Notes under the pieces: generated by a model
Databases searched by the model: none
Told to the model about the DNA's origin: nothing
What the model saw: the letters and a program-made list of their open reading frames with translations, nothing else
Origin: a virus
Taxonomy: Duplodnaviria; Caudoviricetes
IMG/VR virus record: IMGVR_UViG_3300027819_000009
Location: 1 to 64,000 of that record
Direction: 5' to 3' (one strand)
DNA length: 64,000 bases
Shown: one piece after another, positions 21,472-62,118 of the stretch
Layout of the letters: each line of letters begins with the position of its first letter
Position numbering within the stretch: position 1 is the first letter of the stretch
Translations under genes and position numbers: made by a program

Positions 21472-22314
21472 TTAAAGCTCCATGTTGTTTCCGTAGTATT
21501 TATCGAAAAGATCCCTTGTTTTGATTTTTACAGCCTCATCGTATGTGTACATCTTCTTCCCTAAAGTGTTTTTTCTCTTTTCATATAAAGAAGTTGAACT
21601 TGGGTGTTCGTATATGTACTCTTTTATAGCATCAGCAAACATGCGCTCAGAGAATTGTCCCTTAACTCGTTTAACCATGCGATAAACATCCACATGAAAA
21701 TATTTGTTTCCTATCCGGAATTGATGGTTCACCAATTTTTCAACAATCGAGAAGATTTCGTATTCCGATTTAAGCATCTCCTTACAGTCTAAAATTGAGT
21801 CTAGCTGATAATGGTAAGAAACGATCTTAGCATTCTGTCTGAGGATTTTTGAGAATCTTCCAATCGACTGGAAATGAATAACCAAGTCGCAATTTCTGTG
21901 ACGCACCGTACACAATTTACCAATCACCTCGTCTTTTAAATTATCACCCAAAATGGATGACATATCCTCAATTAGAATTGTGCCGCCCCTGAACTCCGTC
22001 AGTGTTCTTATAAGAAGTTTTTCAGTCTCTTCCGGCGACATAGGCATCCCGTTCGGATGGAACGGGGCAATTCTTCTTACCTCAACTTTAGCTTGCTGTC
22101 CGAAAGCAATTATTCCGTTGTGAGGTATGGCTTGGATCCTATGTTTTACTCCGTCGATTTCATATTCTGCGTACTCATTTTGACTATCAAAGAGAAGTGT
22201 TTTGTTTTTATGCGGAGAAACGTAAGCTCCGTACAGTGCCGCTTTTAACGAACTGTATGACTTTCCAATTTCCTGGGCTCCACTTCGAATAAGAATTAAC
22301 CTTCCTCTTGCCAT
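21472..22314 (-). CDS. A32/FtsK-HerA-type genome-packaging ATPase
   Basis: N-terminal Walker A GAQEIGKS, Walker B ILIEDM, and RH...hhhhQ (VRHRNCDLVIHFQ); no nuclease domain. Confidence 0.75.
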   Translation of the reverse strand: MARGRLILIRSGAQEIGKSYSSLKAALYGAYVSPHKNKTLLFDSQNEYAEYEIDGVKHRIQAIPHNGIIAFGQQAKVEVRRIAPFHPNGMPMSPEETEKLLIRTLTEFRGGTILIEDMSSILGDNLKDEVIGKLCTVRHRNCDLVIHFQSIGRFSKILRQNAKIVSYHYQLDSILDCKEMLKSEYEIFSIVEKLVNHQFRIGNKYFHVDVYRMVKRVKGQFSERMFADAIKEYIYEHPSSTSLYEKRKNTLGKKMYTYDEAVKIKTRDLFDKYYGNNMEL

Positions 22315-22324
22315 AAGTACTTAA

Positions 22325-23044
22325 TTATTTAATCCCAAAGAATCCTTTTTCCGGTAAGCGAATAGCCGGAGATGATTCTATATTAAAAGCGATGCAATTG
22401 CCTTTAGGCTTCTCAACTGTAAACGGAAAGCCATAGGAACGTAACCTGCCGGTTATTTCTGCTTCTGTTTTAGTTCCTCCATTTATTGCAAAGCCACAGA
22501 TATCGTCGTACATTGGACGGTGCTTTTTAAAGATGCTGTGTAAACTATACCCGATTACAATTTCCGGATCCGCTAGGGCTTTAGGAAGCTCCTTTTTTAC
22601 TTCTTCTTTCATATCTATATTATTAGTGTTTATTTTTTCGTTAAATTCTTCTTGGGTTACGTGTATTGGTTGAACGACGTAAAATATCTTCTCTTTTGAA
22701 TGCTCTGGCTTTTGATTAGCCCATTCTATATCTTCTTTTGAGGCAGGGTAACCAATGCCAAGAGTAATTTCTTGAGCCTTTAATTCCTCCGTTAACTCCG
22801 CCACTTGTTTATCCTGAAGGCTAGGCGGCTCAAATGGGTAATACTCCTCTTCGTATTCAACCTCATCGACAATTGTGTAAAAATGAATTAAAAGAATTAA
22901 AATAATGCAAATAAGGAAAATTGCCCACTGAACCCATGTTGATGTTTCCTTTTCAATTGCTGCATCTACCCATCCGAATACCAGTCCTGCAATTATAATT
23001 ACTAGCGTAATTGGCCATTTATTCATTAAGGAGAATTTTGTCAT
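22325..23044 (-). CDS. Membrane protein (two N-terminal TM helices) upstream of the ATPase
   Basis: Two hydrophobic segments in the first 60 aa. Confidence 0.7.
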   Translation of the reverse strand: MTKFSLMNKWPITLVIIIAGLVFGWVDAAIEKETSTWVQWAIFLICIILILLIHFYTIVDEVEYEEEYYPFEPPSLQDKQVAELTEELKAQEITLGIGYPASKEDIEWANQKPEHSKEKIFYVVQPIHVTQEEFNEKINTNNIDMKEEVKKELPKALADPEIVIGYSLHSIFKKHRPMYDDICGFAINGGTKTEAEITGRLRSYGFPFTVEKPKGNCIAFNIESSPAIRLPEKGFFGIK

Positions 23045-23175
23045 GATTTATCTTTATCTTTTTTTACTTCAATTATTACTTATATTTGTACTGTCCTAAA
23101 AAAACTGGTCGGTTAGGTGTCCGATTATAGGCTCGAATAAGATTCACTATACCATCCTAATCGACCTCTTTTTTG

Positions 23176-23248
23176 AGCGGAAGACAGGGTTCGAACCTGC
23201 GACATTTAGAGTGGAAATCTAATACTCTACCAACTGAGCTACTTCCGC
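23176..23248 (-). tRNA. tRNA-Gly(TCC), no encoded CCA
   Basis: Cloverleaf GCGGAAG/CTTCCGC, anticodon loop TTTCCAC, TTCGAAC T-loop, U73; TATATTTG promoter at 23274-23281 (minus strand). Confidence 0.9.
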
Positions 23249-23346
23249 TTACAGTTATCTTTATCTTTTGTTGCAAATATACCAATTAATTATGTAAAAT
23301 GCCATTTATGTTTATATCCTAAGATTGGGCTTTTCAAATAGTTACA

Positions 23347-24018
23347 TTATGTAAGGTGGATTTTATTTCCAGATACAATTATAGCTGTGCTTGTGTTGCC
23401 CTTGTGGCATATAGCCTTAAACATCTTCGAATCTGTATCAAAGAACTCATCGTTCCTTCCTTTATCTTTCTTTATTAATAAGCCTTTAATTTCGTAGTAT
23501 TTGCCGGCCGTGTCCACCGCTGTTTTCTCATCATCTAGTATTGTTACCATCATGTTATTTATAGTTTAATGAGTCTGTTTTACATTTAATTATATTCGGG
23601 CGCCAAGGCTTATGCTGCTCTGTTGGCGTTTCCATGCACTGATATCGTCCAGAAGCCTTTTTTAGGCAATATCCGCCTATTACTATAAAGTCCCCGAATA
23701 GGTCGCGTTCTTTATCTTTTATCTCCACAAGGCGCTCTATTTCCAGATTAGTATCAAACTGCTGTAGGAACTTATCCATCTGATTTTCGGATAGGAGTTG
23801 GTATAGTTTTAGCTTTTTCATTCCTCTAGTATTACTTTATACCCGTTTAATTCTAATATTTGCTTTACATCATTTTTTGTTAGCTCTACCGTAATAATCC
23901 TGTCTGATCCATACGTGTGCTTACTGGCCAGCATTTTAGTGTGGTAAATACCAAAGATAGTCCTTGTCTCGTGGTTAAGATTTACATATACCGGCTTTAT
24001 GTATTTGTATAATTTCAT
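23347..24018 (-). CDS. Three small hypothetical ORFs (23347-23553, 23555-23821, 23818-24018)
   Basis: Tandem coupled ORFs. Confidence 0.55.
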
Positions 24019-25746: not shown

Positions 25747-25756
25747 TATTTCTTAG

Positions 25757-25960: not shown

Positions 25961-26842
25961 TTAAGCATAAATAAAATTAGTATCATTGTATGCTTCACCT
26001 CTTAGCCTTCTTGCTAGAATGTTAGGACTTTTAATGTTATTAACAGAGTTAACGGCATTTTGAAGTCCAATATAAAAAATACCAGTTTGTGTATTTAATA
26101 TAATTCTACTTTTAGCTTCTATTGTTTTTTGAGAATGTTTTTTTCCAAAGAAATGGTTTTTTTCACCCTTACTTGATTCGCTAATCCTTCGCCTTACATC
26201 TTCCGAATGTTTTTTTCCAAACATTCCATTCCCCTCTCCGCTATTGGCTATGCTTATTTTTTCTCCAGTTTCTTTTGGTCGTTTTCTGCCTTTATGAAAT
26301 TTACTTACCTTAAGCCTCGCTTCTTTAGAATGCGATTTCCCAAACATAGGATGCTTGTCGCCTGAAACGGCATCGCTTTGTTTTTTCCTAGTTTCAATAC
26401 TCGCCTTTCTGCCTGTATGGATTAATGATATTTTTTTTCTTGTTTCTAAAGATGGGGATTTGCCAAAATTATGATTTTTGTTGCCTTTTTGCGCCTCACT
26501 CATTAAACGTTTAGTTTCAGGAGAATGACTACCTTTACTACCGCCACATTTTCTTAAGTTTAAACCATTTTCTCCGTACACATTGTATAGTTCTCCATAA
26601 TATATTTCAAGTAAATTTAATTCCTCTTTGTTATAAATACCGAGTATATGTATGATTTCTTTTTTATGGGAGTCCCATCCGTATTTTTTCAATGAATTAT
26701 ATAGCCTTCTTTGAGTTTTGCAATTATAATTACAATATCTATCAATCCATGCTTGATATATATGTGTAGATTGCCCAATGTAAATTCTTCCTGTTGGAGA
26801 TGTTAATTTATATATTCCTATTATTTTTTCTTTTTTATTCAT
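25961..26842 (-). CDS. GIY-YIG homing endonuclease with NUMOD3 repeats
   Basis: GIYKLT...IYIGQS; repeated HS.ETRKK.S...G..N.MFGK. Confidence 0.9.
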   Translation of the reverse strand: MNKKEKIIGIYKLTSPTGRIYIGQSTHIYQAWIDRYCNYNCKTQRRLYNSLKKYGWDSHKKEIIHILGIYNKEELNLLEIYYGELYNVYGENGLNLRKCGGSKGSHSPETKRLMSEAQKGNKNHNFGKSPSLETRKKISLIHTGRKASIETRKKQSDAVSGDKHPMFGKSHSKEARLKVSKFHKGRKRPKETGEKISIANSGEGNGMFGKKHSEDVRRRISESSKGEKNHFFGKKHSQKTIEAKSRIILNTQTGIFYIGLQNAVNSVNNIKSPNILARRLRGEAYNDTNFIYA

Positions 26843-46373: not shown

Positions 46374-46395
46374 TTTAGTAGCGATTATTTAATTT

Positions 46396-46432: not shown

Positions 46433-46462
46433 AAACTAAACGATTTAATTCCATTTCGCCAG

Positions 46463-48278: not shown

Positions 48279-48282
48279 AAAA

Positions 48283-49068: not shown

Positions 49069-49078
49069 ACTAAAAAAC

Positions 49079-49408: not shown

Positions 49409-49419
49409 AAACTAATATT

Positions 49420-49911: not shown

Positions 49912-49923
49912 AAATAAGAAATT

Positions 49924-50370
49924 ATGACAAAAGGACAAGTTGTATTATTAACAGGAGGGGCATTGGCTACAATAGCTATTGTTTACTTCGGCTTCATTAA
50001 GGAAGATGCCGCAGGGCTTACTTGGCTTGAGAGACTTAAGTTAGGTAATGAGGGTGATGCGATTGGTGGCGGAAGTGAAACTCAAAAAGAAAACTTTGAA
50101 AAACTGCTTGTTAATACTGGATTAAAACCAACAGGAAAGGATTCTGGCGGTAAAGATGTTTTAACGATTAAATTTAACGGGGATAAAAACGTGGCAGATT
50201 TTTATACTAATAGTAGGGTTTGGATTTATATGCTTTCTCCTACGGGGGCGAAGTCTACTCCTCGCAAGGCAACTTATAGCGATGGGGGTAAAACTTTTTT
50301 AATGGATAAGGACGGAAGTCAAATAACAAAAAGCAGTGTTTTTGCAACTTTACTAGAGGCGATAAAATAA
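49924..50370 (+). CDS. Membrane protein (N-terminal TM)
   Basis: Hydrophobic N-terminus similar to that of 54892. Confidence 0.65.
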   Translation: MTKGQVVLLTGGALATIAIVYFGFIKEDAAGLTWLERLKLGNEGDAIGGGSETQKENFEKLLVNTGLKPTGKDSGGKDVLTIKFNGDKNVADFYTNSRVWIYMLSPTGAKSTPRKATYSDGGKTFLMDKDGSQITKSSVFATLLEAIK

Positions 50371-50371
50371 A

Positions 50372-50872
50372 ATGGCAGATTTAGTTATACCATATAATTC
50401 ACAACCTGACTATGATGAATGGGGGTCGGACACGTTTTGGCCTTTAGCGACATGGGTTGCTTGGCATAGGGGACTAGTGAAAAAATACGGCAGGTCTTTA
50501 AATCCTGGCGGATATCCTTTTGCGGATGCTATTTGGTTGAATGCGTGGAGTAAGCAGAGTTACGGAGCGAGTCCTTTACTAGCAATTGGTCAGCCGAGTA
50601 GATTTAAAGAGGAGACGGATTATTTAAAGAAGTTTCCTTTGCTGTACGAATACACAGGATTAAAAAAGCATGAAACAGGAATAAATCCTATTGATGCTAC
50701 ATATAAGCTGATTCAGAAATCAGCGACGGCTTTGCAGGATTTGGGAGAGGGAGTTACGGATACGATTTCCGGAGTTGGATCTGGACTTAGCGTTTTAAAG
50801 TATGCGATTCCTGTTGTTCTTGTGATTGTAATAGGAACGGGTTTATACATTGGTTACAAAAAATTAGCGTAA
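50372..50872 (+). CDS. Virion membrane protein (C-terminal TM)
   Basis: YAIPVVLVIVIGTGLYIGYKK. Confidence 0.7.
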   Translation: MADLVIPYNSQPDYDEWGSDTFWPLATWVAWHRGLVKKYGRSLNPGGYPFADAIWLNAWSKQSYGASPLLAIGQPSRFKEETDYLKKFPLLYEYTGLKKHETGINPIDATYKLIQKSATALQDLGEGVTDTISGVGSGLSVLKYAIPVVLVIVIGTGLYIGYKKLA

Positions 50873-51612
50873 TGGCAGACATTAAATATATAATTCCTTT
50901 TACTTATAAGTGGGAGGGCGGTTTAAGTAGAGCAACAACAGACTCGGCTTCGAAAAACCCTGCCAATATAAGTCCATACACTATTAATGGTCAAACTGGC
51001 TGGCATACAAATAAGGGAATTACTTATTCGGTATTTAAAGCCGGAGCATCTAAGTATGGGTATCAAGATACTTTAAATAATTGGAAAGATATGCCACACG
51101 ATATTTGGTTAAAAATAACTAAGAGTGGGTATTGGGATAGATTAAAACTTGACACCTATAATAGCCAGCCCGTAGCAAATGTAATGTTTTCATGGGTTTG
51201 GGGATCTGGATTAGCATGGCAACCAAGAATGGAGAGATATTTAAAAACGAAAGGTATTAATTGGGCTCGTAATAATTTTGGAGACTTGGCTACAAATTTA
51301 AATGGCCTAGTTACAAAAGATGGGGAGAAAAAAATATTTGATGAGTTGGTTGAGCAGAAAAAACAGTTTTTACTATCCTTAAAGGGAACAGACTCTAATC
51401 CAGTAACTGATGCAAAGCCTCAAGGGGTTTATACAGATGGGTGGATGAATAGACTTAGGGATTTACAGACGTATAGTTATACTCTGCTTAGTAAAACGAT
51501 TACGGATATAGGCGAGGGTTTAAAGAACAACAGTGGAAAGATAATAGTGTTTTTTTTTGCTTTCTCGATTATAGCGGGGGGAATAGTTTTATATAATAAT
51601 GCGAAAAGTTAA
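50872..51612 (+). CDS. GH108 lysozyme-like protein with a C-terminal membrane anchor
   Basis: WEGG...TNKGIT...YW...VMFSWVWGSG; C-terminal TM. Confidence 0.8.
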   Translation: MADIKYIIPFTYKWEGGLSRATTDSASKNPANISPYTINGQTGWHTNKGITYSVFKAGASKYGYQDTLNNWKDMPHDIWLKITKSGYWDRLKLDTYNSQPVANVMFSWVWGSGLAWQPRMERYLKTKGINWARNNFGDLATNLNGLVTKDGEKKIFDELVEQKKQFLLSLKGTDSNPVTDAKPQGVYTDGWMNRLRDLQTYSYTLLSKTITDIGEGLKNNSGKIIVFFFAFSIIAGGIVLYNNAKS

Positions 51613-51617
51613 ATAAA

Positions 51618-52355
51618 ATGGCAGAATCAAATAATAACAGACAGTACTTTAACAGCGAGGCTTCGAAAAATCGGGATACTTGGAAGTATGCTGATGCCGG
51701 TACTGAGCGAACTCTAAGGATTGGTAATGTAAGGACAAACCTATATGCCACAGGAAAGTTTGATGATGTGCTACGTGCTGAAAAATGGCATAATGCAGAT
51801 AGCGAGTCGGAAAACGAAGATTCAGTTGAGTATGAAAACGAACTTCCCGAAGAGGAATTTACAGAGGAGGAACTTCCGAAATTTCGTCATTTAGTTCGTG
51901 CAAAGAAATTAGAATATAAGGCGCAATACGGAAAGGCTCATTTACAAACAAAAACGGCTTATAAGAAAGTTTGTTTAGGCGGATGGGTAGATATTAAGGG
52001 AGACGGTAAGGGGCCTATATGGAAATCGGATATTAATTGCACGAATATTCCTTATCCACAAATCACATGGGTTTGGGGATGGAGAAAAAAGTGGAGAGAG
52101 TTTAAACAGGCTGGTGGATTAGCACAGTTAAAAATGCAATCTAAAGGAACGGCACCAATACCAGGATACGTGCCTGATGCTAATGCGGGAAATGGAAGTG
52201 GAACTGGGACTGGCACAGGAACAGGAAACAAGCCACCAAAACCAGATATTACGCTTGATTTACCTGAAAAACAAGAGGCATCAATGGTTACTAATGTAGT
52301 TGGTGGCATTTTAGTTGTTGGGCTTTTAATTGGAATATTTAAAACTTTAAAATAG
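51618..52355 (+). CDS. Virion membrane protein (C-terminal TM)
   Basis: N-terminal leader resembles capsid candidate 2; GT-rich linker. Confidence 0.7.
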   Translation: MAESNNNRQYFNSEASKNRDTWKYADAGTERTLRIGNVRTNLYATGKFDDVLRAEKWHNADSESENEDSVEYENELPEEEFTEEELPKFRHLVRAKKLEYKAQYGKAHLQTKTAYKKVCLGGWVDIKGDGKGPIWKSDINCTNIPYPQITWVWGWRKKWREFKQAGGLAQLKMQSKGTAPIPGYVPDANAGNGSGTGTGTGTGNKPPKPDITLDLPEKQEASMVTNVVGGILVVGLLIGIFKTLK

Positions 52356-52361
52356 AAAAAA

Positions 52362-52928
52362 ATGGTAAACAAATTCAGTATATTAAAATTTGATGATGCC
52401 GTAGTGGCATCGTATCATTCGGCAGATGGGCCAGTCCCAGAGGAATTTAATTTATCAAAATACAATGGCGTGTTAGGTCAAGGATACACAGACTCTAATC
52501 TTGTGTTTTTAATTGATAATACTTACTTGCCAGAAGTAAACGGGTTAATACAACAGTATAAAGAGAAGAAGATGGTATTGGGCTCTAGTCCACAAAATAG
52601 CTTTTTAAAACAACAATATGCTGATTATATAGCAACTATGTCGCAGGTTAAGAGTGAGTTGACTATTATAAGAAATGCTGCAAAAGGTAGGATTCAATAT
52701 GCTGTTGATCACCCACAGTCTGTTATTGGAGAGGGGACAGATCTTGGGCAGGTAAATCTTAATTTTGGTAGCCCCAAAACAGATGGTGGTAAGGGAAGGA
52801 ATGTTGGCGAGACGGTTAATGTTGATTTAAATTTACCAAAAACACAAAAAGCATCGCTTACAGGGAATATAATCGGAACAGTCCTTATTTTAGGATTAGT
52901 TTTCGGAGCAATAAAATTTATGAAATAA
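52362..52928 (+). CDS. Virion membrane protein (C-terminal TM)
   Basis: SADG motif; tail homologous to 51618. Confidence 0.7.
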   Translation: MVNKFSILKFDDAVVASYHSADGPVPEEFNLSKYNGVLGQGYTDSNLVFLIDNTYLPEVNGLIQQYKEKKMVLGSSPQNSFLKQQYADYIATMSQVKSELTIIRNAAKGRIQYAVDHPQSVIGEGTDLGQVNLNFGSPKTDGGKGRNVGETVNVDLNLPKTQKASLTGNIIGTVLILGLVFGAIKFMK

Positions 52929-52935
52929 AAACATT

Positions 52936-53340
52936 ATGCCAGGAACATTAGAAAATCCATCAGGAAACACAGGAAGGGGATCTGCTCCAACATCTGAACA
53001 GTATGCTCAGTGGGCGCAACAGTCTGCTGCTCTTGCGGCTCAAATCGCAGAGGCTAAAAATAAGAGAGATGCTTTAATGGCTCAGACGGGATGTAAAAAG
53101 CCGTTAATAATGGCTGGTAAAAAGAAAAAAGCGTATTTGGCATGTTTGGAGAATTACAAAGCAAAAGTTGAGGCAGCAAAACAAGCGGATAGAGATTTGG
53201 TTCGTATGCAACTGGAAATGAGAAGGCTTGATGCTCTGCAAAATAAAGGCTTAAGTACCGGCGCATGGATAGCGATATCGGTTGGTGCAGCATTGTTAAT
53301 TACCGGAGTTGTGGTATTGGTAGTAAAATTAAAAAAATAA
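52936..53340 (+). CDS. Helical virion membrane protein (C-terminal TM)
   Basis: GLSTGAWIAISVGAALLITGVVVLVV. Confidence 0.7.
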   Translation: MPGTLENPSGNTGRGSAPTSEQYAQWAQQSAALAAQIAEAKNKRDALMAQTGCKKPLIMAGKKKKAYLACLENYKAKVEAAKQADRDLVRMQLEMRRLDALQNKGLSTGAWIAISVGAALLITGVVVLVVKLKK

Positions 53341-53344
53341 AATT

Positions 53345-54526
53345 ATGACAACAGAAGAACGCAGAATTAAAATACTTGAAAAGCGACTAAGGCTTTTAGG
53401 TGAGTATCTTGAGAGATTCTCTGATGGCGATGGGCCATCATTTGCCGAGTTTGCAAAATCGAAAGATATTACTTATGAGATGTTTGTTAAAGACTTGCCT
53501 CCTGGATTTGAGAATGTTCCGGCGAGTGGATACGATAATGTTTTAGAATATGCCCTACAGCTAAATGAGCTTCTTAACGGACAGCGTAACCTTTCCGAAA
53601 TGGAGGAGATAGCGGCTGATGGAAACAACCTTGAAAGAGGAGTAACTGACTATTATGGGCAGTATATCAGAGAGGATTGCGGATGTGGTGGTGGTAGTGA
53701 AGATGATAATAGTGCTAGTGCTGACGGGGATGAATTTTCGGCAGCAGGATGTGGTTTGCCTCCAGTTCCGCCTCCGTTTCCAAATCCTAAAAAGACAAAT
53801 AATGCCATTACTAGAGCGGCGAGAAAATCATGGGATAAGTATAAAGAAAAACATGCTAAATACAGAAGGTGTGTGAACGCTCAAAAAGAAAAGAGAAAAG
53901 GATATTCTCTTAACGATAAGGCATCTCACGCTCTGCATCTTTCAAATCCATCAGAGGCTATCGGACGGGTGGCGTTTTTAAAACTAATAGCATTAAATAT
54001 TTTTGGATTAGCTCAGACTTATGAAAGAATGAGAAGTCATCCGAATCAAACCCATTGGGACAGAATGAAAAAATTATGGTACAGGCTCGGTGGATCGGAG
54101 GTAAAATTAGATAAAAACATAAGCATTGGAAGAGGAAAAAAGCCTATATTTAGACCGAAAGGATGGAAACCAAAACCATTAAATGCGGATGGGGGGATTT
54201 ACTCGGCGGATGGTGGTGTTTGGCATAATGCTTACGATGGGATTGCTATCGGTGGAATGATTACTGCGGCCACTGGATTGATTGGATCTGTTGCTCCGAT
54301 TATAAAATCCTTCAAAAAGGATAACGCAGAGCCCGATGCCGACACTTATGACCCTTTAAATCCAGACATGAGGCTTCCTGAAGACACCGAACTCCCAGAT
54401 GATACCGGAGTTGATGGAGATGGGCTAACCACTAATCAATGGATTGGAATATCGGCAGGGGTAGCTGTGGTTCTTGGGGTTATTATATTTGCAGGATATA
54501 AAATGAGTAAAGAAATAATAAATTAA
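53345..54526 (+). CDS. Large virion membrane protein with multiple ADG motifs
   Basis: AADG, SADG, NADG, SADG; C-terminal TM. Confidence 0.75.
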   Translation: MTTEERRIKILEKRLRLLGEYLERFSDGDGPSFAEFAKSKDITYEMFVKDLPPGFENVPASGYDNVLEYALQLNELLNGQRNLSEMEEIAADGNNLERGVTDYYGQYIREDCGCGGGSEDDNSASADGDEFSAAGCGLPPVPPPFPNPKKTNNAITRAARKSWDKYKEKHAKYRRCVNAQKEKRKGYSLNDKASHALHLSNPSEAIGRVAFLKLIALNIFGLAQTYERMRSHPNQTHWDRMKKLWYRLGGSEVKLDKNISIGRGKKPIFRPKGWKPKPLNADGGIYSADGGVWHNAYDGIAIGGMITAATGLIGSVAPIIKSFKKDNAEPDADTYDPLNPDMRLPEDTELPDDTGVDGDGLTTNQWIGISAGVAVVLGVIIFAGYKMSKEIIN

Positions 54527-54570
54527 ACATCAATAAATAAAGGTAATTATATATTTATTGATACAAAAAA

Positions 54571-54867
54571 ATGAGAAAGCTAATTAGAAATATAAAATAT
54601 GGGTTAGATTTCCGTAAAACAGCTAATAACTTGCGGAAAATAATCGAAGCCACTTTTATTACAGAATTTAAAATTACTAATCCTAAAATAAAGGTTAATT
54701 TTCGGTTTGGGTACGCACAATATTTTTATAGACCATCTGTGTGGTTTGGAACAAGGCAAATTGGTATTATAAGGGAAGATTACCAAGATTCTGGGTGGGT
54801 TTCTTCATTTTATACAATAAAACAGTATTTAGAACTGAAGAAAAAATTAGTATCAACAAATATATAG
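54571..54867 (+). CDS. Hypothetical protein
   Basis: 98-aa ORF. Confidence 0.5.
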   Translation: MRKLIRNIKYGLDFRKTANNLRKIIEATFITEFKITNPKIKVNFRFGYAQYFYRPSVWFGTRQIGIIREDYQDSGWVSSFYTIKQYLELKKKLVSTNI

Positions 54868-54891
54868 TTACCTAAATAAAAAACAAATAAT

Positions 54892-55242
54892 ATGGAAAAA
54901 GGAATGAAAATAGGGTTAGGGATTGGTGGAGCCGCCCTTGCTATCGCTGTAATTTACTTTGGTTTTACAGAAAAGGGTAAACAACAATGGTCTGTAATGT
55001 TTGACCCAACAAAAGGAGGTACAAATGTTCCGCCAAGAACAGGAACAGCCGAAGATGGGGGCAAGAGCAGAGATGTTGGTGCGGATGGGTTAAATACACG
55101 CATAAGAAAAGGATCAGGTTCTGTCGGTTCTGGAAAGTGGATTATTAAAGGTGATATGATAGGAAAATCATGTCCGTCTGGTCAATATCCAATATATCTA
55201 GAGGGAGAGAAAAAATGGGTTTGTGCCATATCTGATAGATAA
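54892..55242 (+). CDS. Membrane protein (N-terminal TM)
   Basis: GADG motif; C-terminal Cys pair. Confidence 0.65.
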   Translation: MEKGMKIGLGIGGAALAIAVIYFGFTEKGKQQWSVMFDPTKGGTNVPPRTGTAEDGGKSRDVGADGLNTRIRKGSGSVGSGKWIIKGDMIGKSCPSGQYPIYLEGEKKWVCAISDR

Positions 55243-55306
55243 TTTATAATCTTTTATAATAAAGTTGTATTTTTGAGGCTTTAAACCTATTAATACAATC
55301 TCTATC

Positions 55307-56038
55307 ATGGCGGAAGTAAAAAACAATGTCTTTGCTGATAAACTAGCGGGGCTTAAATTAGATTATGAAGATTATGGGCGTTTACCGATGCGAATGGATG
55401 TCCAAGCTCTTGTTGCACCAGATGGTAAAAACACAGCAGATGTTGTTTCGCAATTTGATAAACTTCAGTACATAAGAGAGCATTTAAAAAAGATTGATGA
55501 TTACATTAAGGCAAAAACGAATGTTCCTATTAATGAGTGGAGTGCAAAGAATAACAAAAATCTAAGCACTAAAGTTCTTTCAAAGCTAAAAGGTCATACT
55601 AACGAAACTGGAGGTATTTCAAAATACTTTCATGATTTACAAACTATTTATGACTCCGAAGAGGCTCTTTATGATAAAATGGAGGCCGACTGCAAATCGG
55701 ACGAGGCATCAAATAAGATGTTTTACGGAATGCGGGCGGATAGGGATGAGAAGAGAAAAACAAGATCCGCAGAGAGAAAACTTTTAGTAAAGGATTTAAA
55801 GAAAGACGGGAAGGGATTCTTGTTTGTTGAAGTTGAGGAAGCGCCGGTTGCGAAAGAGGAAGTGAAAAAAGAAGAGAAGGAAAATGAACATGCTGCCGAT
55901 GGGGATTCGAAGGAGAAAATTGAAAAGGAAGTTGATAAGATACAAAAGACCACAAAGAACGTGGGGATTTACATTGCCGGCTTTACAATACTGCTTACTG
56001 CGGTTATAGTTGTAGCCTCGGCAACAAAAGAAAAATAA
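55307..56038 (+). CDS. Virion membrane protein (C-terminal TM)
   Basis: AADG motif; TATTTTTG promoter at 55268-55275. Confidence 0.7.
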   Translation: MAEVKNNVFADKLAGLKLDYEDYGRLPMRMDVQALVAPDGKNTADVVSQFDKLQYIREHLKKIDDYIKAKTNVPINEWSAKNNKNLSTKVLSKLKGHTNETGGISKYFHDLQTIYDSEEALYDKMEADCKSDEASNKMFYGMRADRDEKRKTRSAERKLLVKDLKKDGKGFLFVEVEEAPVAKEEVKKEEKENEHAADGDSKEKIEKEVDKIQKTTKNVGIYIAGFTILLTAVIVVASATKEK

Positions 56039-56039
56039 A

Positions 56040-56579
56040 ATGAGCAGAGTTTGGAGAAATATAGCGGCTGTAGGTGTGGCAATAGTAGTGCCACTTGGCT
56101 TCTATGCATACTTTTCAGTTAAACTTCTAACTCAAATCGCTGTTAGTGTTTTTAGTATAAAAATTAAAAGTGTAGGGGCGGGATTTATTGATTTAGTGCT
56201 TACTCTTCGAGTTGAGAATCCCGCAAATGTAGGGGTTTCTATTGAGGGGTATGATATGAAAATAAAGATTAACGGGGCAGATGTGGCTGATATAAAAAAC
56301 ACAACTAGTAAAAAACTCGAATCGAAGGCCGTATCTTACCTTGATATTCCGATTACAATAAAATATCCAGAGTTTGCTAGTAAGGTAAAATTTAATGAAA
56401 TACTTCAGTACTTATTACTGAGTAAATTTGAGAAAATTTCGTTAACTTTGGATGGCGCCATTTTAGGATCCGTTGCTAAAGTTCCGGTTGCTACAAGTAT
56501 AAAGGCTACTCTTACAATGCGGGACATAATGGATAAGAAGGATCCGAAATTTGATATTGGTAAAATAAAGTTTTTTTAA
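56040..56579 (+). CDS. LEA_2/WHy-domain protein with N-terminal TM
   Basis: LTLRVENPANVGVSIEGYDMKIKING. Confidence 0.75.
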   Translation: MSRVWRNIAAVGVAIVVPLGFYAYFSVKLLTQIAVSVFSIKIKSVGAGFIDLVLTLRVENPANVGVSIEGYDMKIKINGADVADIKNTTSKKLESKAVSYLDIPITIKYPEFASKVKFNEILQYLLLSKFEKISLTLDGAILGSVAKVPVATSIKATLTMRDIMDKKDPKFDIGKIKFF

Positions 56580-56581
56580 TT

Positions 56582-56986
56582 ATGGGATTTATAGACAACA
56601 AAGTAAAAAAGACATTTGAAAAGATTTTTAAAGGCGTTGCAAAAGAAATCAACTGCGATGTATCTGAGGTAAAAATTGGAATCGTTTATAAAGACGGTCA
56701 GATTGTTTACGAGGCTTATAGGGGGAATGAAAAAGAAAAGGACATTAAACTATCTGACTATTTAAATATGTTTGACTCTGCTCCACATGTAATTGAGGCA
56801 ACAATAGGACAAGCGAGCGGAAGATATGCCTCAGAGGTTGCTACAAAGTTAAACAAGGAAGTGCATCCGAATGATGTAAGTATAATTTTTAAAGATGTCC
56901 CAGGAGAAATTCCACGTGCTGTTTTAATGGCATTCGGACAAAAACAAAGAGAAATTGATGTAAAAACAGAATTTTCACAAAGTTAA
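56582..56986 (+). CDS. Hypothetical protein
   Basis: ORF in the virion operon. Confidence 0.65.
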   Translation: MGFIDNKVKKTFEKIFKGVAKEINCDVSEVKIGIVYKDGQIVYEAYRGNEKEKDIKLSDYLNMFDSAPHVIEATIGQASGRYASEVATKLNKEVHPNDVSIIFKDVPGEIPRAVLMAFGQKQREIDVKTEFSQS

Positions 56987-56998
56987 AAAAATAAAAAG

Positions 56999-57361
56999 AT
57001 GCCGAGTCAGATACCTATTATATTTTTCAACAGGGAGGTTACCAACACCCTTGTTTTAGTTGCTTCAGGAAGGGTTACTCTTGTTGGATGGTTGCTATCG
57101 AATCATAGCACTGCCGCTTATTTAAAACTTTATAATGCAGCAGCAATAACAGATGTTGCGCTGGCATCAACTGTTCCTAATAAAATTCTACCAATACCAA
57201 CAGGGCCTGGAGGATTATTTTTTCTTAGTAATGAGGATAAGTTTCAACAGAATTTTAATTTAGGTTTGGTTATAGCTGTTGTTTCTACACTAACCGAATC
57301 TGCAACGGCACCGGCACAAGCATGTAGCGTGGAGTTGTCTTACGATAATATTAGTCAATAG
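56999..57361 (+). CDS. Small beta-rich vertex/penton-like protein
   Basis: LVGWLLSN...AYLKLYNA...ILPIP pattern; directly precedes the spike. Confidence 0.45.
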   Translation: MPSQIPIIFFNREVTNTLVLVASGRVTLVGWLLSNHSTAAYLKLYNAAAITDVALASTVPNKILPIPTGPGGLFFLSNEDKFQQNFNLGLVIAVVSTLTESATAPAQACSVELSYDNISQ

Positions 57362-57367
57362 AAAGAT

Positions 57368-58654
57368 ATGGGATCATTCGCAACTAGCAACCCCACAGGG
57401 GGATCAGATATAACAGGAAGCGGAACGGCCAATCAAGTTGCTGTTTTTGCATCGGCATCATCTATAGGAAATCCTACTATTTCATTTACGTCTAGTGCAA
57501 CTGGCTTTACTATAGGCTCGCTTACGGCAGAGCCGGCTGGAATACTTACACTTACATCTATTACACAGGGGTTTATTCCTCCAAGACTTACGTCAGCACA
57601 AAGAAATGCAATGCCGGCGGTTCTAGTTGGGATGTCTATATTTAACACAACAAGAGATACAATTGATATTTATACAGAAGGTGGCGGGGTTCCAGCTTGG
57701 GCATCACTGATTACATCTACGATGTATCCAACGGCGTTTACTGTTGGTGCGCTTTTAATGGCCAATACAACAACCACTATCACCACATTATCTGCTGGGG
57801 CGGGAGTCGGTTCGTATTTAAGGTCGGCTGGAGCGGCAACAGAGTTGGTGTGGAGCGTTTTAACACTTCCTAACGCCGCTACCGTAGGAGATATTTTTTA
57901 CTCAGATACGACTAATGTAATGGGTAGGCTTGCCTCTGGGGCAACGGCTGGAATGTTTTTAAGAAACGTAGGGGCATCAACGGCTCCGGTATGGAGTACG
58001 CTTATACTTCCGAATGCTGCAACAGCTAATCAAATAGTTTATGCTTCAGCCACCAACACATACGGAGGCACAACAACGTTTTTATTTAACGGCACATCGT
58101 TTTTAGTAGGTACAGCGACTCAAATAGGCGCAGGAAATATTTGTGACTTTTTTAGAAATCAGAATGGCGCAACGTCTGTGTGGACTACTAATAATACATC
58201 GGGAACTGCCGCTTTTGCTATGAATGCAGTAACGGCGGATAATGGGACAACCAATACAAGTATGCGCTCATTAAGCGCAGGTTATACTACGTCAGGAATG
58301 CTTGTGGCTAGTACTGGTGTTGTATTAACAACCTGTACTGCCGGAATGAACCTTGGTACTTTTTCTAACACACAATTGTCTTTTTGGACAAATAATACAC
58401 AACAATGGAGCATAACATCCGGCGGCATATTAACGGCTGTGGATGCTAAAGATATAGCGTTTGGAACCACAACAGGAACAAAAATAGGCACAGCGACATC
58501 GCAAAAATTAGCTTTTTATAACGCCACGCCTATTGTTCAGGGGGCAAGCATAGCGGATGCTTCTGGTGGGGCAATTATAGATGCCGAGGCAAGGACGGCT
58601 ATAAACGCTCTTATATCAAGAATCGAGGCAACTGGACTTATAGCAACGGTTTAA
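57368..58654 (+). CDS. Spike/fibre protein (Thr/Gly/Ala-rich, repeated)
   Basis: Repeated LPNAAT.G.(I/L)(F/L).../..W S.L.LPNAA fibre units. Confidence 0.75.
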   Translation: MGSFATSNPTGGSDITGSGTANQVAVFASASSIGNPTISFTSSATGFTIGSLTAEPAGILTLTSITQGFIPPRLTSAQRNAMPAVLVGMSIFNTTRDTIDIYTEGGGVPAWASLITSTMYPTAFTVGALLMANTTTTITTLSAGAGVGSYLRSAGAATELVWSVLTLPNAATVGDIFYSDTTNVMGRLASGATAGMFLRNVGASTAPVWSTLILPNAATANQIVYASATNTYGGTTTFLFNGTSFLVGTATQIGAGNICDFFRNQNGATSVWTTNNTSGTAAFAMNAVTADNGTTNTSMRSLSAGYTTSGMLVASTGVVLTTCTAGMNLGTFSNTQLSFWTNNTQQWSITSGGILTAVDAKDIAFGTTTGTKIGTATSQKLAFYNATPIVQGASIADASGGAIIDAEARTAINALISRIEATGLIATV

Positions 58655-58680
58655 AAATAATAAAATGTGCAAAACTAATT

Positions 58681-59889
58681 ATGGCAATAGGATTTATAAG
58701 ATCTACACCCGTTAATATTCCATTGCCTATTGGTAATCTAATTAATGATTCATTTTCTGGCGCAGCATTAAGCTCCAACTGGACAGCAACAAATCCAAAT
58801 ACTACAATTACAGTTAGTGGGGGGGATTTGCTTTTAAATAGGTCGGTTGGAGGCGGATATCAGCTTAATAGCGATTACTTATTATACACTGGATATGGTG
58901 GGACTTGTCTTGAGGATTGGACAATTACAGTTCCTTTTAAAATAACAGAAACAAGCGCAACGAGTACCGGCTTTGCTATTGGTGTTAAGTCGACTGCAAA
59001 TTGGTATTCTAACTATTGGTATCTAGTTCAGTTTAACACAAATAGTGGCGCTGGAAATAAAAAGCTGTATTTTTATATGGCTGGCGCAACAACCGCCACT
59101 ACAATATCCTCAACGGCACTAACGGCAGCACTAAATGATGAGTGTACTCTTACTGTTACTAGGTCGGCAGATACCACAAATGGACAAAAAATAACAGCTA
59201 CAGTTACAAATTTAACTAATCCCAACAGCGTAAGCCACTCCTATACATTTACAGAGGCGTATCAGATTACTGTCGGATCGCCACCCACATGCTACTTCGC
59301 TATTTTCCCATTCGTTGGGCAAATAACGCTTCACTCCTTTACAGTTAGCACAGCTTATTATAAAAACTGCAATATAATTACAAGGGGAGATAGTATAACT
59401 AGGGGTGTTTATGCTTTATCCTACACGAACAGATGGACTACTTTATTCTTTGGAAGCTCTCTTAAAAAAAACTATTCGTGTGGTGGCCCAGGAGACAGAA
59501 CAACATCTGTACTGGACAATATACCGGAATTGCTTTTATTTAAGCCTAAGTTTGTTGTTTTAATGATTGGAGGGAACGACCTAGCTGGCGGCGTGGCAAT
59601 AGGCACAGTGCAGACCAATTACCAAAGTATAGTAACTCAGCTTATAGCCGGCGGTATCACAGTGTGGCATTGTATGACTCCGCCGAGAAATGGTTATGAT
59701 TATACAACGTGGAACAGCTGGTTAAGCTCAACTTATTTAAATGTAGTCAACACATTTACTAATTTAAAAGCTGCTGTTGGAACTGGATTAAATGCCGCAT
59801 ACAATAGCGGAGATGGAACACATGAAAACACAGCTGGCCACGCATTAATAGCATCCGACTGCACATCATCTATAGGAAGTTTAGTATAA
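58681..59889 (+). CDS. SGNH/GDSL hydrolase with an N-terminal beta (lectin-like) domain
   Basis: GDSIT, GGPG, GGNDL, DGTH. Confidence 0.88.
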   Translation: MAIGFIRSTPVNIPLPIGNLINDSFSGAALSSNWTATNPNTTITVSGGDLLLNRSVGGGYQLNSDYLLYTGYGGTCLEDWTITVPFKITETSATSTGFAIGVKSTANWYSNYWYLVQFNTNSGAGNKKLYFYMAGATTATTISSTALTAALNDECTLTVTRSADTTNGQKITATVTNLTNPNSVSHSYTFTEAYQITVGSPPTCYFAIFPFVGQITLHSFTVSTAYYKNCNIITRGDSITRGVYALSYTNRWTTLFFGSSLKKNYSCGGPGDRTTSVLDNIPELLLFKPKFVVLMIGGNDLAGGVAIGTVQTNYQSIVTQLIAGGITVWHCMTPPRNGYDYTTWNSWLSSTYLNVVNTFTNLKAAVGTGLNAAYNSGDGTHENTAGHALIASDCTSSIGSLV

Positions 59890-59901
59890 AATAAATAAAT
59901 T

Positions 59902-60312
59902 ATGAGAAGAACTCGGCAAGGATTTGATACAGCGTTAAGAAACTCGACAAGGGGAGATGTTGAGGATTTAGCAGATAGTTTTTATAACTTACTCTCTGAT
60001 GGGGCGGTTCAGCCACTTACAGACGGAGCAACTATATCTTGGGACACAGAATCTGGCATGAATGCCTCAGTGACATTAACTGGAAACAGAGTATTATCAA
60101 TACTAAACCCATTAGCTGGTTGTTTTTATACAATACGAGTTTCGCAAGATTCAACCGGATCAAGAACACTCTCGCTCCCATCGCCAAGCAAGGTTGTTAA
60201 TGGTGGGGCTGGGGCAGTAACCCTTACCCCAACAGCCAATGCAATAGATATACTAACCGCATATTATGATGGGACTACGTATTATTGGACTTATGTATTA
60301 AACTTTACTTAA
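59902..60312 (+). CDS. Fibre/receptor-binding tip-type domain protein
   Basis: LTDGATISWD...QDSTGSRTL...T.TANAIDIL..YYDG. Confidence 0.65.
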   Translation: MRRTRQGFDTALRNSTRGDVEDLADSFYNLLSDGAVQPLTDGATISWDTESGMNASVTLTGNRVLSILNPLAGCFYTIRVSQDSTGSRTLSLPSPSKVVNGGAGAVTLTPTANAIDILTAYYDGTTYYWTYVLNFT

Positions 60313-60349
60313 AAAATTATTTATATATTTGTATAAATAGATTGAATCT

Positions 60350-60817
60350 ATGAAAAAGAAAATTACCTATAAAAAACTTCAAGAATTTGATAAAATGGCA
60401 ACAAACTACCTAGTTAAAAACGGGTACTTTACTCCAGCTGTTTTTAAAGATGGCCACCCTGTATCTGCCGGCGAATTTACAAACAAAGAGCAGACGAAAC
60501 TTGTGGCTAATATGAAAAACATAGTTAAGCAAGGGAAAAAAGCATTCGAGGAGTTTACAGAATTACAAAACAATATATACATCGATAATTGTGCTGTAGA
60601 TGAAAAAACGAAGGTTATGATTTTAGATGCGAAAGGCGGATACCAGTTTACTCCTGAAAAACAAAAAGAGGTAAATAAAAAAATCAAAGAGCTTGTTATT
60701 TCTGAAATTGAAATACACGCAAGAATTACAGAAGGAGAGTGGGGATTAACGGACGAGGAGAAAGAGGCATTTAACGGAATAATTATACCGGAATTTAAAA
60801 CAGAAGAAACTGAATAG
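60350..60817 (+). CDS. Fibre assembly chaperone-like protein
   Basis: Helical acidic ORF after the fibre genes; TATATTTG at 60324-60331. Confidence 0.45.
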   Translation: MKKKITYKKLQEFDKMATNYLVKNGYFTPAVFKDGHPVSAGEFTNKEQTKLVANMKNIVKQGKKAFEEFTELQNNIYIDNCAVDEKTKVMILDAKGGYQFTPEKQKEVNKKIKELVISEIEIHARITEGEWGLTDEEKEAFNGIIIPEFKTEETE

Positions 60818-60824
60818 AACTCTT

Positions 60825-61284
60825 ATGGATATACACACACACGATGCCGACTTTAGTGTAAGTACAAACAATAAACTTACAATACTATTTCTTTTATTCA
60901 GCGGATTGTTTCATTGGATGCAGACGCTAAGTGCTGATGTAATTTATATTTGGTTTTTTAGAACCCTTACGGTTATCTCTGTTATGTTAGTTATCGTGCT
61001 AAATTTAATTAAACTTATAGAGTGGTATAAATCAAAAAAAACAAAATAGAATGAAAAAGTATAAAGTTCATTTTTCAATTTTCAACATCTTCTCCGATAG
61101 CCAATCGGAGGTTGTGAAATTACAAACTGTTTTTAAATCTATATCTGCAGCCGTTGTTGGGACTGTTTGGTATGAGTCAAACTCTACTAATGCCCTTTAT
61201 TTTGCAATTGGAGGATGTGTTGTAGATGCTATTCTGGCGTGTTTCTATTTCGAGCATATAAATAAGGACGAGTTAAAGCCATAA
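60825..61284 (+). CDS. Two small 2-TM proteins, holin candidates (60825-61049, 61051-61284)
   Basis: Two TM helices each; basic C-terminus in the first. Confidence 0.5.
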
Positions 61285-61287
61285 AAC

Positions 61288-61437
61288 ATGAAATCAATGA
61301 AATTTTTATTTGTATTTATAGGACTTGGATTTATTTGTTATGGAATAAATAGGTGCGATAAAGAAAATCAAGATTGTGTTTCTGTAAAAACAGAAACTTC
61401 CATTGTGGATTCATTAAAAACAGACTCACTGAAATAA
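61288..61437 (+). CDS. Small membrane/lipoprotein-like peptide
   Basis: MKSMKFLFVFIGLGFIC...; coupled to the next ORF. Confidence 0.4.
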   Translation: MKSMKFLFVFIGLGFICYGINRCDKENQDCVSVKTETSIVDSLKTDSLK

Positions 61438-61769
61438 TGCGGAAGGAAGTTTTAAAATACACACTAATTATTGTTGGTGTTTTTATATTAGTTCGGCTGT
61501 ATGACTTTGTAACCAAAAAGCCGGCGCCGATTGAAAGAACGGTAGATCCCAGAATTTTAAGGCTAGATTCTGAAATTACAGTCCTTAAAAAAGAAATGGA
61601 GCTATCAGCCAAAGAAAGGGCAGTTAGGGACTCAAACATTAACTCTCGTTTTGATAGTATAAGAACGGATCGCCAAAAAGCAAATAATGAAAAAAAGAAG
61701 TTATATAAAATTCCAGATTCGGAGCTTATTCGTATCCGTGATTCTATTCGGAAAGTTAACGGCTTATAG
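61437..61769 (+). CDS. i-spanin-like protein
   Basis: N-terminal TM plus coiled coil. Confidence 0.5.
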   Translation: MRKEVLKYTLIIVGVFILVRLYDFVTKKPAPIERTVDPRILRLDSEITVLKKEMELSAKERAVRDSNINSRFDSIRTDRQKANNEKKKLYKIPDSELIRIRDSIRKVNGL

Positions 61770-62118
61770 CCAGGCTGGTGAGGTAATTTGCCTTACCCCC
61801 AATGAATACCGGTTCTATGCAGGAGCAGTTATTGATAGGCAAGCGATGGCTAAAGATACCACTCGGTTAAAAGAGGCTATATTTGACTTAAAAACCAATA
61901 ATGCGTCCCTAGAGTCGGACTTGGCGAAATCTCGCGACGTAGAGGCTAAAATGGGCGAAAAAGAGGCTATTTACGTACATAAGATAGATACACTTTCGGA
62001 TGCTGTGGATAAGTATAAAATAAAAACTGTCCGGAATAGGCGGATGGCTATTGTTGGTGGAGGAGTTTCGGTTTTAGAAACAGTGCTTATTGTTTTGGGA
62101 CTTATTTTAATTTTTTAG
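61687..62118 (+). CDS. Spanin-like protein (signal, coiled coil, C-terminal TM)
   Basis: Overlaps the previous ORF. Confidence 0.45.
   Translation: MKKRSYIKFQIRSLFVSVILFGKLTAYSQAGEVICLTPNEYRFYAGAVIDRQAMAKDTTRLKEAIFDLKTNNASLESDLAKSRDVEAKMGEKEAIYVHKIDTLSDAVDKYKIKTVRNRRMAIVGGGVSVLETVLIVLGLILIF

Follow-up and report, generated by a model that had tools for sequence, protein, structure and literature searches.

The DNA analysed here is a window of 64,000 nucleotides, corresponding to positions 1-64000 of the 74,657-bp IMG/VR record IMGVR_UViG_3300027819_000009, whose other 10.6 kb were also analysed. The window covers about 86% of the genome of a bacterial virus that has not been cultured and comes from groundwater, a groundwater metagenome being the source of one matching contig. 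Our data indicate that this virus probably represents a widespread, undescribed lineage with tailless icosahedral particles enclosing an internal membrane. A previous reading of the window, made from the letters alone (the sequence-only reading), had proposed an undescribed large-genome lineage, probably with single-jelly-roll capsids. This proposal is sustained, at the level of fold and sequence features, by a putative packaging ATPase (g53) similar to the B204 protein of STIV, by two jelly-roll paralogs (g94 and g95) and by the membrane-protein-rich operon which they head. From gene content and fold we infer that the paralogs form the coat, that a membrane is present and that the particle has no tail.

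A B204-like ATPase and two predicted jelly-roll paralogs

The sequence-only reading had described an A32/FtsK-like ATPase with Walker A, Walker B and RH...Q motifs, and all of them are found in g53. Specifically, the protein carries a Walker A sequence GAQEIGKS (residues 11-19) and a Walker B sequence ILIEDMS (residues ~113-119). In its family, which comprises 31 metagenomic clusters, E116, D117, R138, H139 and Q149 are invariant in 29 members, with K18 and S19 nearly so. The AlphaFold2 (AF2) model of g53, with a pLDDT of 89.8, was compared with the PDB using two aligners. In the Foldseek search, the first 13 listed rows all correspond to the genome-packaging NTPase B204 of STIV or STIV2 (E 7e-8 to 3e-6; TM by target 0.6-0.68), followed by ATP synthase and RecA from 6e-5, and then by Zot, HerA and VirB4. 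An exhaustive aligner independent of Foldseek (VIA) also placed B204 first, with a Z of 15.8 over 187 of 204 residues at 2.9 Å, ahead of HerA (14.7), DndH (14.2), VirB4 (13.5), TrwB (11.2), FtsK (9.9) and Zot (9.8). By these matches, g53 can be assigned to the FtsK-HerA superfamily, and the structure closest to it is that of B204, the only packaging ATPase from a membrane-containing virus to have been solved.

Like B204, g53 is a minimal single-domain FtsK-HerA ATPase that carries Walker A and B motifs, and its virus, too, encodes many membrane proteins; g53 differs in being only 13-15% identical and in carrying an extra helical C-terminal part of ~60 aa (residues 222-280). At the sequence level, Pfam gave two weak matches (Zot, 20.2 bits for a cut-off of 20.3; DUF87/HerA, E 0.099). 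No PHROG matched, a tblastn search of 50,697 phage records was empty, and the g53 profile had no match among PDB sequences. Aligned with PRD1 P9 through hhalign, the same profile matched nothing except the Walker A motif. By its modelled fold, g53 would putatively drive ATP-dependent DNA packaging at a vertex of the capsid.

The two beta-rich paralogs of about 200-230 aa, to which the sequence-only reading had drawn attention, are 60% identical overall (BLASTP, E 3e-83), and more alike in their cores. The fold check that had been proposed for the 45684 protein, g94, was run. In its AF2 model the N-terminal arm is disordered, and the beta core (pLDDT ~75-89) is predicted to adopt a viral-type single jelly roll. 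Foldseek searches of the PDB with this model returned coat proteins of picornaviruses, comoviruses, tymoviruses and satellite viruses, with E ~1e-3. The exhaustive aligner gave the coat protein of grapevine fanleaf virus (GFLV; Z 7.4), the penton protein P31 of PR772 (Z 6.5-6.9), CPMV (Z 6.7-7.0) and the major capsid protein (MCP) of FLiP (Z 6.0), and the STIV turret and phiCjT23 capsid chains were also among the fold matches. All together, jelly-roll capsid proteins dominate three fold searches, with Z 5-7.4, and a re-alignment of Foldseek's own matches agrees.

Both genes, each with a single jelly roll (g94 by its model, g95 by its 60% identity), would encode coat proteins, because of the modelled fold, because they open the late operon, because their conservation matches that of the ATPase and because no alternative candidate is at hand. 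A double-jelly-roll coat, with two jelly rolls in one chain, is not what is encoded here, as g94 and g95 are separate one-domain genes. Two other products were considered for such a role and rejected: g99, of the size of the PM2 coat, carries an HExxH motif, and g115 is fibre-like.

The g94 family comprises 63 clusters at 90% identity, every one an unnamed metagenomic protein. A profile search of 1.84 billion representatives (50% identity) retrieved 631 proteins at E<=1e-3, 339 at 1e-10 and 68 at 1e-30. Among the distant relatives, two contain two complete domains in one open reading frame (ORF), namely P0170 (397 aa; L010:10001-11194) and P0197 (307 aa; L008:686-1609). Three others (the L003 ORF at 10692-12431, P0095 and P0106) have a single domain with an insertion of ~290 aa in the loop after the first strands. 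The gene for P0170, on a scaffold of 107,188 bp, immediately follows a further glycan-synthesis cluster. Capsid jelly rolls are known to evolve by way of tandem paralogs, fused doubles and loop insertions, and the presence of these forms in the g94 family was therefore counted as support for the coat role. Searches for more familiar relatives were negative: hhalign of the capsid profile with PRD1 P31 found no relationship, the capsid sequence and profile gave nothing meaningful against PDB sequences, and the profile found no relative among IMG/VR contigs apart from its own record.

Between g94 and g95, at 46400-46435, a G+C-rich 6-bp stem with a 13-nt loop, followed by T8, was recognised by eye. 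This hairpin could attenuate transcription, leading to an excess of the first paralog. It escaped a consensus terminator scan because its loop exceeds the limit of the scan; around the capsid genes, consensus promoter and terminator scans did not rise above shuffled sequences. In addition, a 31-codon ORF with one hydrophobic helix (45536-45631) lies between the divergent promoter region and g94.

The late operon and its predicted membrane proteins

A 16-kb operon of membrane proteins had been described downstream of the paralogs, and it is borne out by a co-directional plus-strand block of 29 ORFs at 45684-62118. In a crude hydropathy scan, one hydrophobic anchor was predicted in 18 of these 29 ORFs and in 10 of the 118 ORFs elsewhere (Fisher p 3.5e-9). 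The anchors of the late operon are mostly at the extreme C-terminus, and their abundance is an indirect sign for an internal membrane. The features of this block, together with those surrounding the ATPase, are reported in Table 1.

Table 1. Position and supporting evidence of the features discussed
Feature	Position	Strand	Evidence and remarks
CspA-like cold-shock domain (CSD) protein g52, 64 aa	21125-21319	-	Directly downstream of the ATPase; KGFGFI motif; Pfam CSD E 4.4e-19
Putative genome-packaging ATPase g53, 280 aa; FtsK-HerA superfamily, B204/A32-like	21472-22314	-	Motifs, family, AF2 fold
Two-pass membrane protein g54, 239 aa	22325-23044	-	Directly upstream of the ATPase; two predicted hydrophobic helices
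tRNA-Gly (TCC)	23175-23248	-	ARAGORN
21-kb glycan-synthesis island	24015-45216	-	Per-gene Pfam matches, synteny
Major capsid protein candidate 1, g94, 229 aa	45684-46373	+	Disordered W/A-D-rich N-terminal arm and predicted single jelly-roll core (~46-205)
Major capsid protein candidate 2, g95, 204 aa	46463-47077	+	Paralog of g94
Three small single-pass membrane proteins, g96-g98	47218-48278	+	Anchor scan; BLASTP matches in L003 and L004
Soluble HEFAH (HExxH) protein g99, 261 aa, putative zinc metalloprotease	48283-49068	+	Sequence; 58%/53% identity in L003/L004
Run of 13 ORFs, 12 with one N- or C-terminal anchor	49079-56579	+	Anchor scan, Pfam
Tail-anchored GH108 + PG_binding_3 muramidase g104	50872-51612	+	Pfam, anchor scan (C-terminal)
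LEA_2-like protein, probably g112	56040-56579	+	Pfam tally
Small protein g114, 120 aa, penton candidate	56999-57361	+	Directly upstream of the fibre genes; position mirrors PRD1 P31 -> P5
Fibre/spike-like protein g115, 428 aa	57368-58654	+	Atlas look-alikes; sequence repeats
Spike protein g116, 402 aa, C-terminal SGNH/GDSL esterase	58681-59889	+	Pfam Lipase_GDSL_2 E 5.7e-16
Distal module: small soluble g117 and g118; small, C-terminally anchored g119, g120 and g122	59902-62118	+	ORF list, anchor scan

Most proteins of the late module are without a recognisable family, and megablast of the module against the 50,697 phage records gave no match. In distant relatives the HExxH protein g99 is conserved on a par with the capsid protein; it has no Pfam or PHROG family and no meaningful PDB sequence match, and it is a candidate maturation protease and possibly a new virion-associated metalloprotease. 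The muramidase g104, g111 and g112 are kept in a relative (G001:C26), and the core common to a 53%-identity relative consists of the ATPase, the capsid protein, g96-g99, the lysozyme, g111 and g112. A PG_binding_1 match likely falls in the 49079-56579 run and a glycine-zipper Pfam match within the late module; the tally names families and not members, so that the PG_binding_1 and LEA_2 assignments are partly drawn from the annotation of a relative.

The spike genes foreseen by the sequence-only reading are supported to different extents. The product of g116 ends in an esterase domain and also matches a PHROG 'tail protein' family (E 3.7e-6, residues 222-266), and is a probable receptor-modifying enzyme. 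The fibre-like nature of g115 is a lead only, coming from Atlas look-alikes which carry Mtd_N, PTL_trimer and Peptidase_S74 domains with scores <=0.93 and TM <0.4. The penton candidate g114 has no family match and no PDB sequence match, and Pfam and PHROG gave no informative family for the proteins of the distal module.

The 5,256 residues of the late module contain 11 copies of a short motif, [S/N/Y/G/A]-A-[D/N]-G, compared with 3 copies in the 17,803 residues elsewhere (p 1.5e-5). Its carriers within 45684-56038 of the window are g94, g95, g96, g99, g101, g106, g108, g110 and g111. The N-terminal leader of the membrane protein g105, FNSEASKNRDTWKYADAG, is much like that of g95, FNNESSQNRDIWRYANGS (family hidden Markov model, E 0.008). 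The shared leader motif may be a cleavage, targeting or calcium-binding signal.

The anatomy of these genes suggests how the particle might be built. The shell would consist of the two paralogous single-jelly-roll proteins g94 and g95, with perpendicular jelly rolls, probably paired in pseudo-hexameric capsomers, a pairing likened to that of viruses with two single-jelly-roll coat proteins. It would surround an internal lipid vesicle in which some 18 single-pass membrane proteins encoded by the virus are embedded, and its vertices would carry the small penton-type candidate g114 and the fibre/esterase spikes g115 and g116. The tail-anchored GH108 muramidase g104 would breach peptidoglycan at entry or exit, and the HExxH protein g99 may process virion proteins. 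Finally, filling of preformed particles with DNA would fall to the B204/A32-like FtsK-HerA ATPase g53, acting as a pump at a special vertex.

Genome extent, tailed-phage genes and alternative explanations

On the whole record, which IMG/VR classes as viral and flags with direct terminal repeats, we called 147 ORFs of >=50 aa, with a coding coverage of 93%. The GC content is 34-40%, and strand skews switch along with gene orientation. Genes are arranged in an early plus-strand block (1-19 kb), a minus-strand block (19-45.5 kb) and the plus-strand block at 45.7-62 kb; past 62 kb lie replication and recombination genes (DnaB, a primosomal protein, RecT, a second integrase and a methyltransferase).

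The terminal repeat of the record is real and 104 bp long, and it is part of a GC-rich 146-bp element present in six copies, which bound small gene cassettes at the left end of the genome (window 1-124, 1749-1894, 3188-3333, 3769-3914 and 4766-4911; genome 74532-74657, L002:12533-12658). Both contig ends are inside copies of this element. For this reason the repeat was rejected as proof of a complete circle, and a comparison of independent assemblies took its place. Two further assemblies of the same virus, of 70,475 bp (ENA, k141) and 69,901 bp (NCBI metagenome), are 100% identical to the record over the stretches fetched and aligned; groundwater samples underlie the assemblies (PRJEB22302, ERZ27253369, GCA_900218215.1). 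The 69,901-bp contig begins at 4772, within the element, while the 70,475-bp contig extends beyond the right end, across the element, as far as the left-end cassette 3188-3902. Thus all three assemblies break at the 146-bp element, and only small left-end cassettes are joined through it. From these breaks and joins it appears that a unique segment of 69.9 kb is flanked on both sides by the element. The genome is therefore larger than the 64 kb of the window, in agreement with the sequence-only reading, and is probably a circle of ~70-75 kb with an ambiguous order of cassettes.

A few genes of the early block deserve mention in their own right. The longest ORF of the record, g44 (15267-16940), encodes a lysine-rich product of 557 aa that is matched by no Pfam or PHROG family, phage families included, and aligns weakly to a 1,191-aa protein of the relative L006 (29% identity, E 1e-9). 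Just upstream of it, the annotation of an identical contig (L017) places a PP-binding (acyl-carrier-like) ORF and a Fic ORF. The products of g46 (17279-17668) and g47 (17682-18731) match no family; they are kept beside the ATPase in the relatives L004 and L006 (37-44% identity), and the first half of g47 is long, proline-/glycine-rich and of low complexity.

The Pfam and PHROG scans covered all 147 ORFs, and the ORFs of >=227 aa outside the glycan island were tabulated singly. As the sequence-only reading had stated for the window, no terminase, portal, HK97 capsid, tube, sheath, tape measure or baseplate family was found by these scans in the 74,657-bp record, including the remaining 10.6 kb which had been indicated as the place to look. 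Six-frame searches of the record with Terminase_6N, TerL_ATPase, Phage_portal and Phage_capsid (one Pfam family each for portal and capsid) were empty as well, and control genomes gave matches. The tail-type matches in the record are weak and of the fibre type only, with E 3.7e-6 to 0.01.

Several observations weigh against a tailless, membrane-containing particle built on jelly rolls. HerA and VirB4 score just 1-2 Z units under B204, and these fold scores are also compatible with g53 being a non-packaging DNA translocase. The best Z of g94, 7.4, is in a range graded as middling by the aligner, and the fold is generic: the matches include non-capsid jelly rolls such as nucleoplasmin, Ena pili, phage tail proteins and carbohydrate-binding modules, and a BFVD fold search returned generic jelly rolls only. 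Moreover, no MCP of the Halopanivirales (VP16/VP17 of P23-77, VP4/VP7 of the SH1 type) was listed in the top 50 rows of any of the three PDB fold searches, and no sequence link was found between the capsid or ATPase families and PRD1 P9/P31, SSIP-1 or any PDB chain. The crude nature of the hydropathy scan bears on the count of anchors. Finally, the 104-bp terminal repeat sits within a six-copy repeat and CheckV estimates the completeness of the record at 66%, so that a segment may be missing; a large missing segment is, however, unlikely.

The best surviving alternative, which we regard as unlikely, is that the same gene set builds a different particle, being pleomorphic or enveloped, or icosahedral without a lipid core, or using the jelly roll as a vertex, cement or nucleoid protein, with the true shell protein, of a fold that escapes recognition, elsewhere in the module. 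Lipid and symmetry are unreadable from sequence, most module proteins are without a recognisable family, and the fold matches of g94 include the penton P31 of PR772, cement proteins and nucleoplasmin-like pentamers. However, the only other soluble, conserved, capsid-size protein of the module is the HExxH-bearing g99, the paralogs head the operon and belong to a large conserved family with fused two-domain forms, and the B204-type ATPase is known from capsid-packaging viruses.

That the record belongs instead to a highly divergent tailed phage, whose terminase, portal, HK97 capsid and tail genes are missing or too diverged to be seen, appears quite improbable. Such an explanation can appeal to the doubts on completeness given above, to the resemblance of g115 and g116 to tail fibres, to weak PHROG hints (tail fibre, tail assembly protein and P22 gp7, E 0.003-0.01) and to the Uroviricota label of the Atlas clusters which hold the relatives of the ATPase. 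Against it, the same repeat-bounded 69.9-kb unique segment recurs in three assemblies, with only small cassettes joined through the repeat, and no ORF exceeds 557 aa. TerL, the most conserved phage gene, is absent from both ORF and six-frame searches that had positive controls. To our knowledge, a B204-like ATPase and 18 anchored late-operon proteins are not features of tailed phages, and fibres are borne by tailless viruses too, as in the case of PRD1 P5.

Equally improbable is a non-viral plasmid or integrative element with a cassette array, in which g53 would be a HerA/VirB4-type translocase, the membrane block an envelope or secretion apparatus, and the jelly rolls surface or pilus subunits: the two tyrosine recombinases, the repeat-bounded cassettes, the DNA methyltransferases, Fic and RecT, the closeness of HerA and VirB4 to B204 and the Ena pilus subunits among the jelly-roll matches (Z 5.6-5.9) would suit it, but no relaxase, coupling-protein or type IV secretion family turned up in the general Pfam/PHROG scans, g53 has the minimal size of B204 without the accessory domains of HerA and VirB4, the lysozyme and esterase spike form a virion-type kit, IMG/VR classes the record as viral, and the relatives are discrete contigs of 40-107 kb, none of them seen embedded in a chromosome.

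Known viruses, the glycan island and the host

Returning to the tailless, membrane-containing particle, the genome stands out by size among the viruses of this structural lineage, which include PRD1 (15 kb), PM2 (10 kb), FLiP (9 kb), STIV (18 kb), HHIV-2 (30 kb) and SSIP-1 (44 kb) (PMC6260650). A comparative table of tailless membrane-containing prokaryotic viruses spans 9-44 kb, with SSIP-1 as the largest entry (PMC6260650), and genomes are 16-19 kb in Simuloviridae and ~30 kb in Sphaerolipoviridae (PMC12642351, PMC12643093). The sequence-only reading had placed the characterised prokaryotic members well under the size of this genome; to this SSIP-1, at 44 kb, has to be admitted as an exception (PMC6260650). 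A full-text search of the literature found no paper on bacterial viruses of this type at >=70 kb.

The closest architecture is that of the Halopanivirales, for which we compared the families Sphaerolipoviridae, Simuloviridae and Matsushitaviridae (SH1, HHIV-2, SNJ1, P23-77 and IN93). These viruses have two single-jelly-roll coat genes, a packaging ATPase, an internal membrane with viral membrane proteins, and vertex spikes (PMC12642351, PMC12643093), and the same architecture is proposed here. Their genomes are of 16-31 kb (PMC12642351, PMC12643093), in contrast to the 70-75 kb of this one. In addition, the two coat proteins of these viruses have diverged strongly from one another, unlike the 60% identical g94 and g95, and are absent among the listed fold matches of g94. 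Their hosts are haloarchaea or Thermus. We know of no member of the Halopanivirales with a glycan island.

Other known systems share single traits with this virus. STIV (Turriviridae), the source of the nearest ATPase structure, differs in that the host here is bacterial and the capsid genes encode single, not double, jelly rolls; the genome here is also about 4 times the 18 kb of STIV (PMC6260650). SSIP-1, whose host is related to Bacteroidota, is a phage that has no tail but contains a membrane; it has a circular dsDNA genome of 44 kb, T=49 symmetry and two suggested types of coat protein (PMC6260650, PMC6356626). It is the largest bacterial entry in the comparative table, and the genome described here is about 1.7 times larger (PMC6260650). 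The capsid and ATPase family profiles found nothing in its six-frame translation, and SSIP-1 encodes a 2,319-aa structural protein, while the largest ORF here is of 557 aa. In PRD1 (Tectiviridae) the late region is likewise rich in small membrane proteins, the membrane-associated peptidoglycan hydrolase P7 parallels g104, and the penton gene (P31) directly followed by the spike gene (P5) parallels the g114-g115-g116 run; unlike here, PRD1 has one double-jelly-roll coat protein and a linear 15-kb genome with protein-primed replication.

Between the ATPase and the capsid genes lies a glycan-synthesis island encoding a GT6, a GT11 and four GT2 enzymes, an NDP-sugar epimerase, a GDP-mannose-dehydratase-like enzyme, a C-methyltransferase and further methyltransferases, with a NUMOD3 endonuclease-like gene and a Fic gene interspersed. 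Below the island, the minus-strand block continues with the tRNA-Gly gene, the two-pass membrane protein g54, the ATPase and the CspA-like gene. The order ATPase-then-CSD recurs in the relative L014. For g54, which has no Pfam or PHROG match, a role as membrane partner of the packaging vertex is possible. The endonuclease-like gene, g61 (25961-26842), contains four NUMOD3 motifs (E 5e-41), which are typical of homing endonucleases, and a 130-kb contig (L020) carries a GIY-YIG/NUMOD3 gene at the equivalent place.

The sequence-only reading had found it unusual that the ATPase lies 23 kb from the capsid genes and on the opposite strand. This arrangement is confirmed: the minus-strand block starts back-to-back with the capsid operon, is mostly glycan island and has the ATPase at its other extremity. 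The distance is explained by this lineage-conserved island lying in between. Relatives are arranged alike, but in them the capsid gene and the ATPase are closer to each other, at 6.5 kb in a Planctomycetota-binned contig, ~14 kb in a Woesebacteria-binned one and 14.5 kb in L014. The island is syntenic in relatives, and the best 25 matches of the dehydratase-like gene are all on virus-size contigs (45-75% identity), with cellular enzymes at <=40%. Therefore, the island is better regarded as an old resident of the lineage than as a recent capture. Its enzymes would glycosylate virion proteins or else remodel the host surface.

Chloroviruses (PBCV-1) are known for virus-encoded glycosylation of their jelly-roll capsid protein. 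As in those viruses, a glycosyltransferase and sugar-nucleotide block, conserved in the lineage and diverged from cellular enzymes, here appears to accompany jelly-roll capsid genes; unlike in those viruses, the host would be bacterial, the genome is far smaller and modification of the host surface is an equally possible role. The likeness is one of functional analogy.

The ATPase and capsid families occur together on the contigs of at least 6 relatives, and distant relatives are found on contigs of up to 107 kb. The peptidoglycan hydrolase with its peptidoglycan-binding domains argues for a bacterial host. The sequence-only reading had named Bacteroidota, which is our best guess too, held only slightly more firmly than its contrary. 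Indirect signs are in favour. Shine-Dalgarno-like motifs precede 21 of 146 genes (14.4%), equal to a background of 14.6%, with leaders of 50-65% A; the lack of a Shine-Dalgarno excess together with A-rich leaders is the pattern of Bacteroidota. One integrase matches Phage_int_SAM_5, which is common in Bacteroidota elements, the structural neighbours of the fibre g115 are Bacteroidota proteins, and the contig of one relative is binned as Bacteroidia. The contigs binned as Woesebacteria, Planctomycetota and Nanoarchaeota were taken as mis-binned virus contigs. Two further tests pointed neither way: over the whole genome, the Bacteroidota -7 promoter motif TANNTTTG shows no enrichment (84 matches, 89.6 expected), and the relatives of DnaB and RecT are a mix of Flavobacteriia and Firmicutes phages.

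In conclusion, these data can tentatively be extended to a broader and rather doubtful picture, in which a large tailless membrane-containing lineage would combine a coat family caught at every stage (single, tandem and fused) with an ancestral glycosylation system, specific to the virus, that decorates the virion. The coat-like family does hold separate, tandem and fused forms. If this picture is true, the virus would offer a bacterial counterpart of chlorovirus capsid glycosylation. A common lineage of >=70 kb would in any case raise the size ceiling for this type of particle in bacteria. A share of the "tailed phage" labels in viral databases would then be wrong, and the lineage would help to explain why non-tailed particles dominate many aquatic virus counts. 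Finally, with the conserved island beside the capsid genes, it becomes possible to test directly whether the virion of a bacterial jelly-roll virus is glycosylated.

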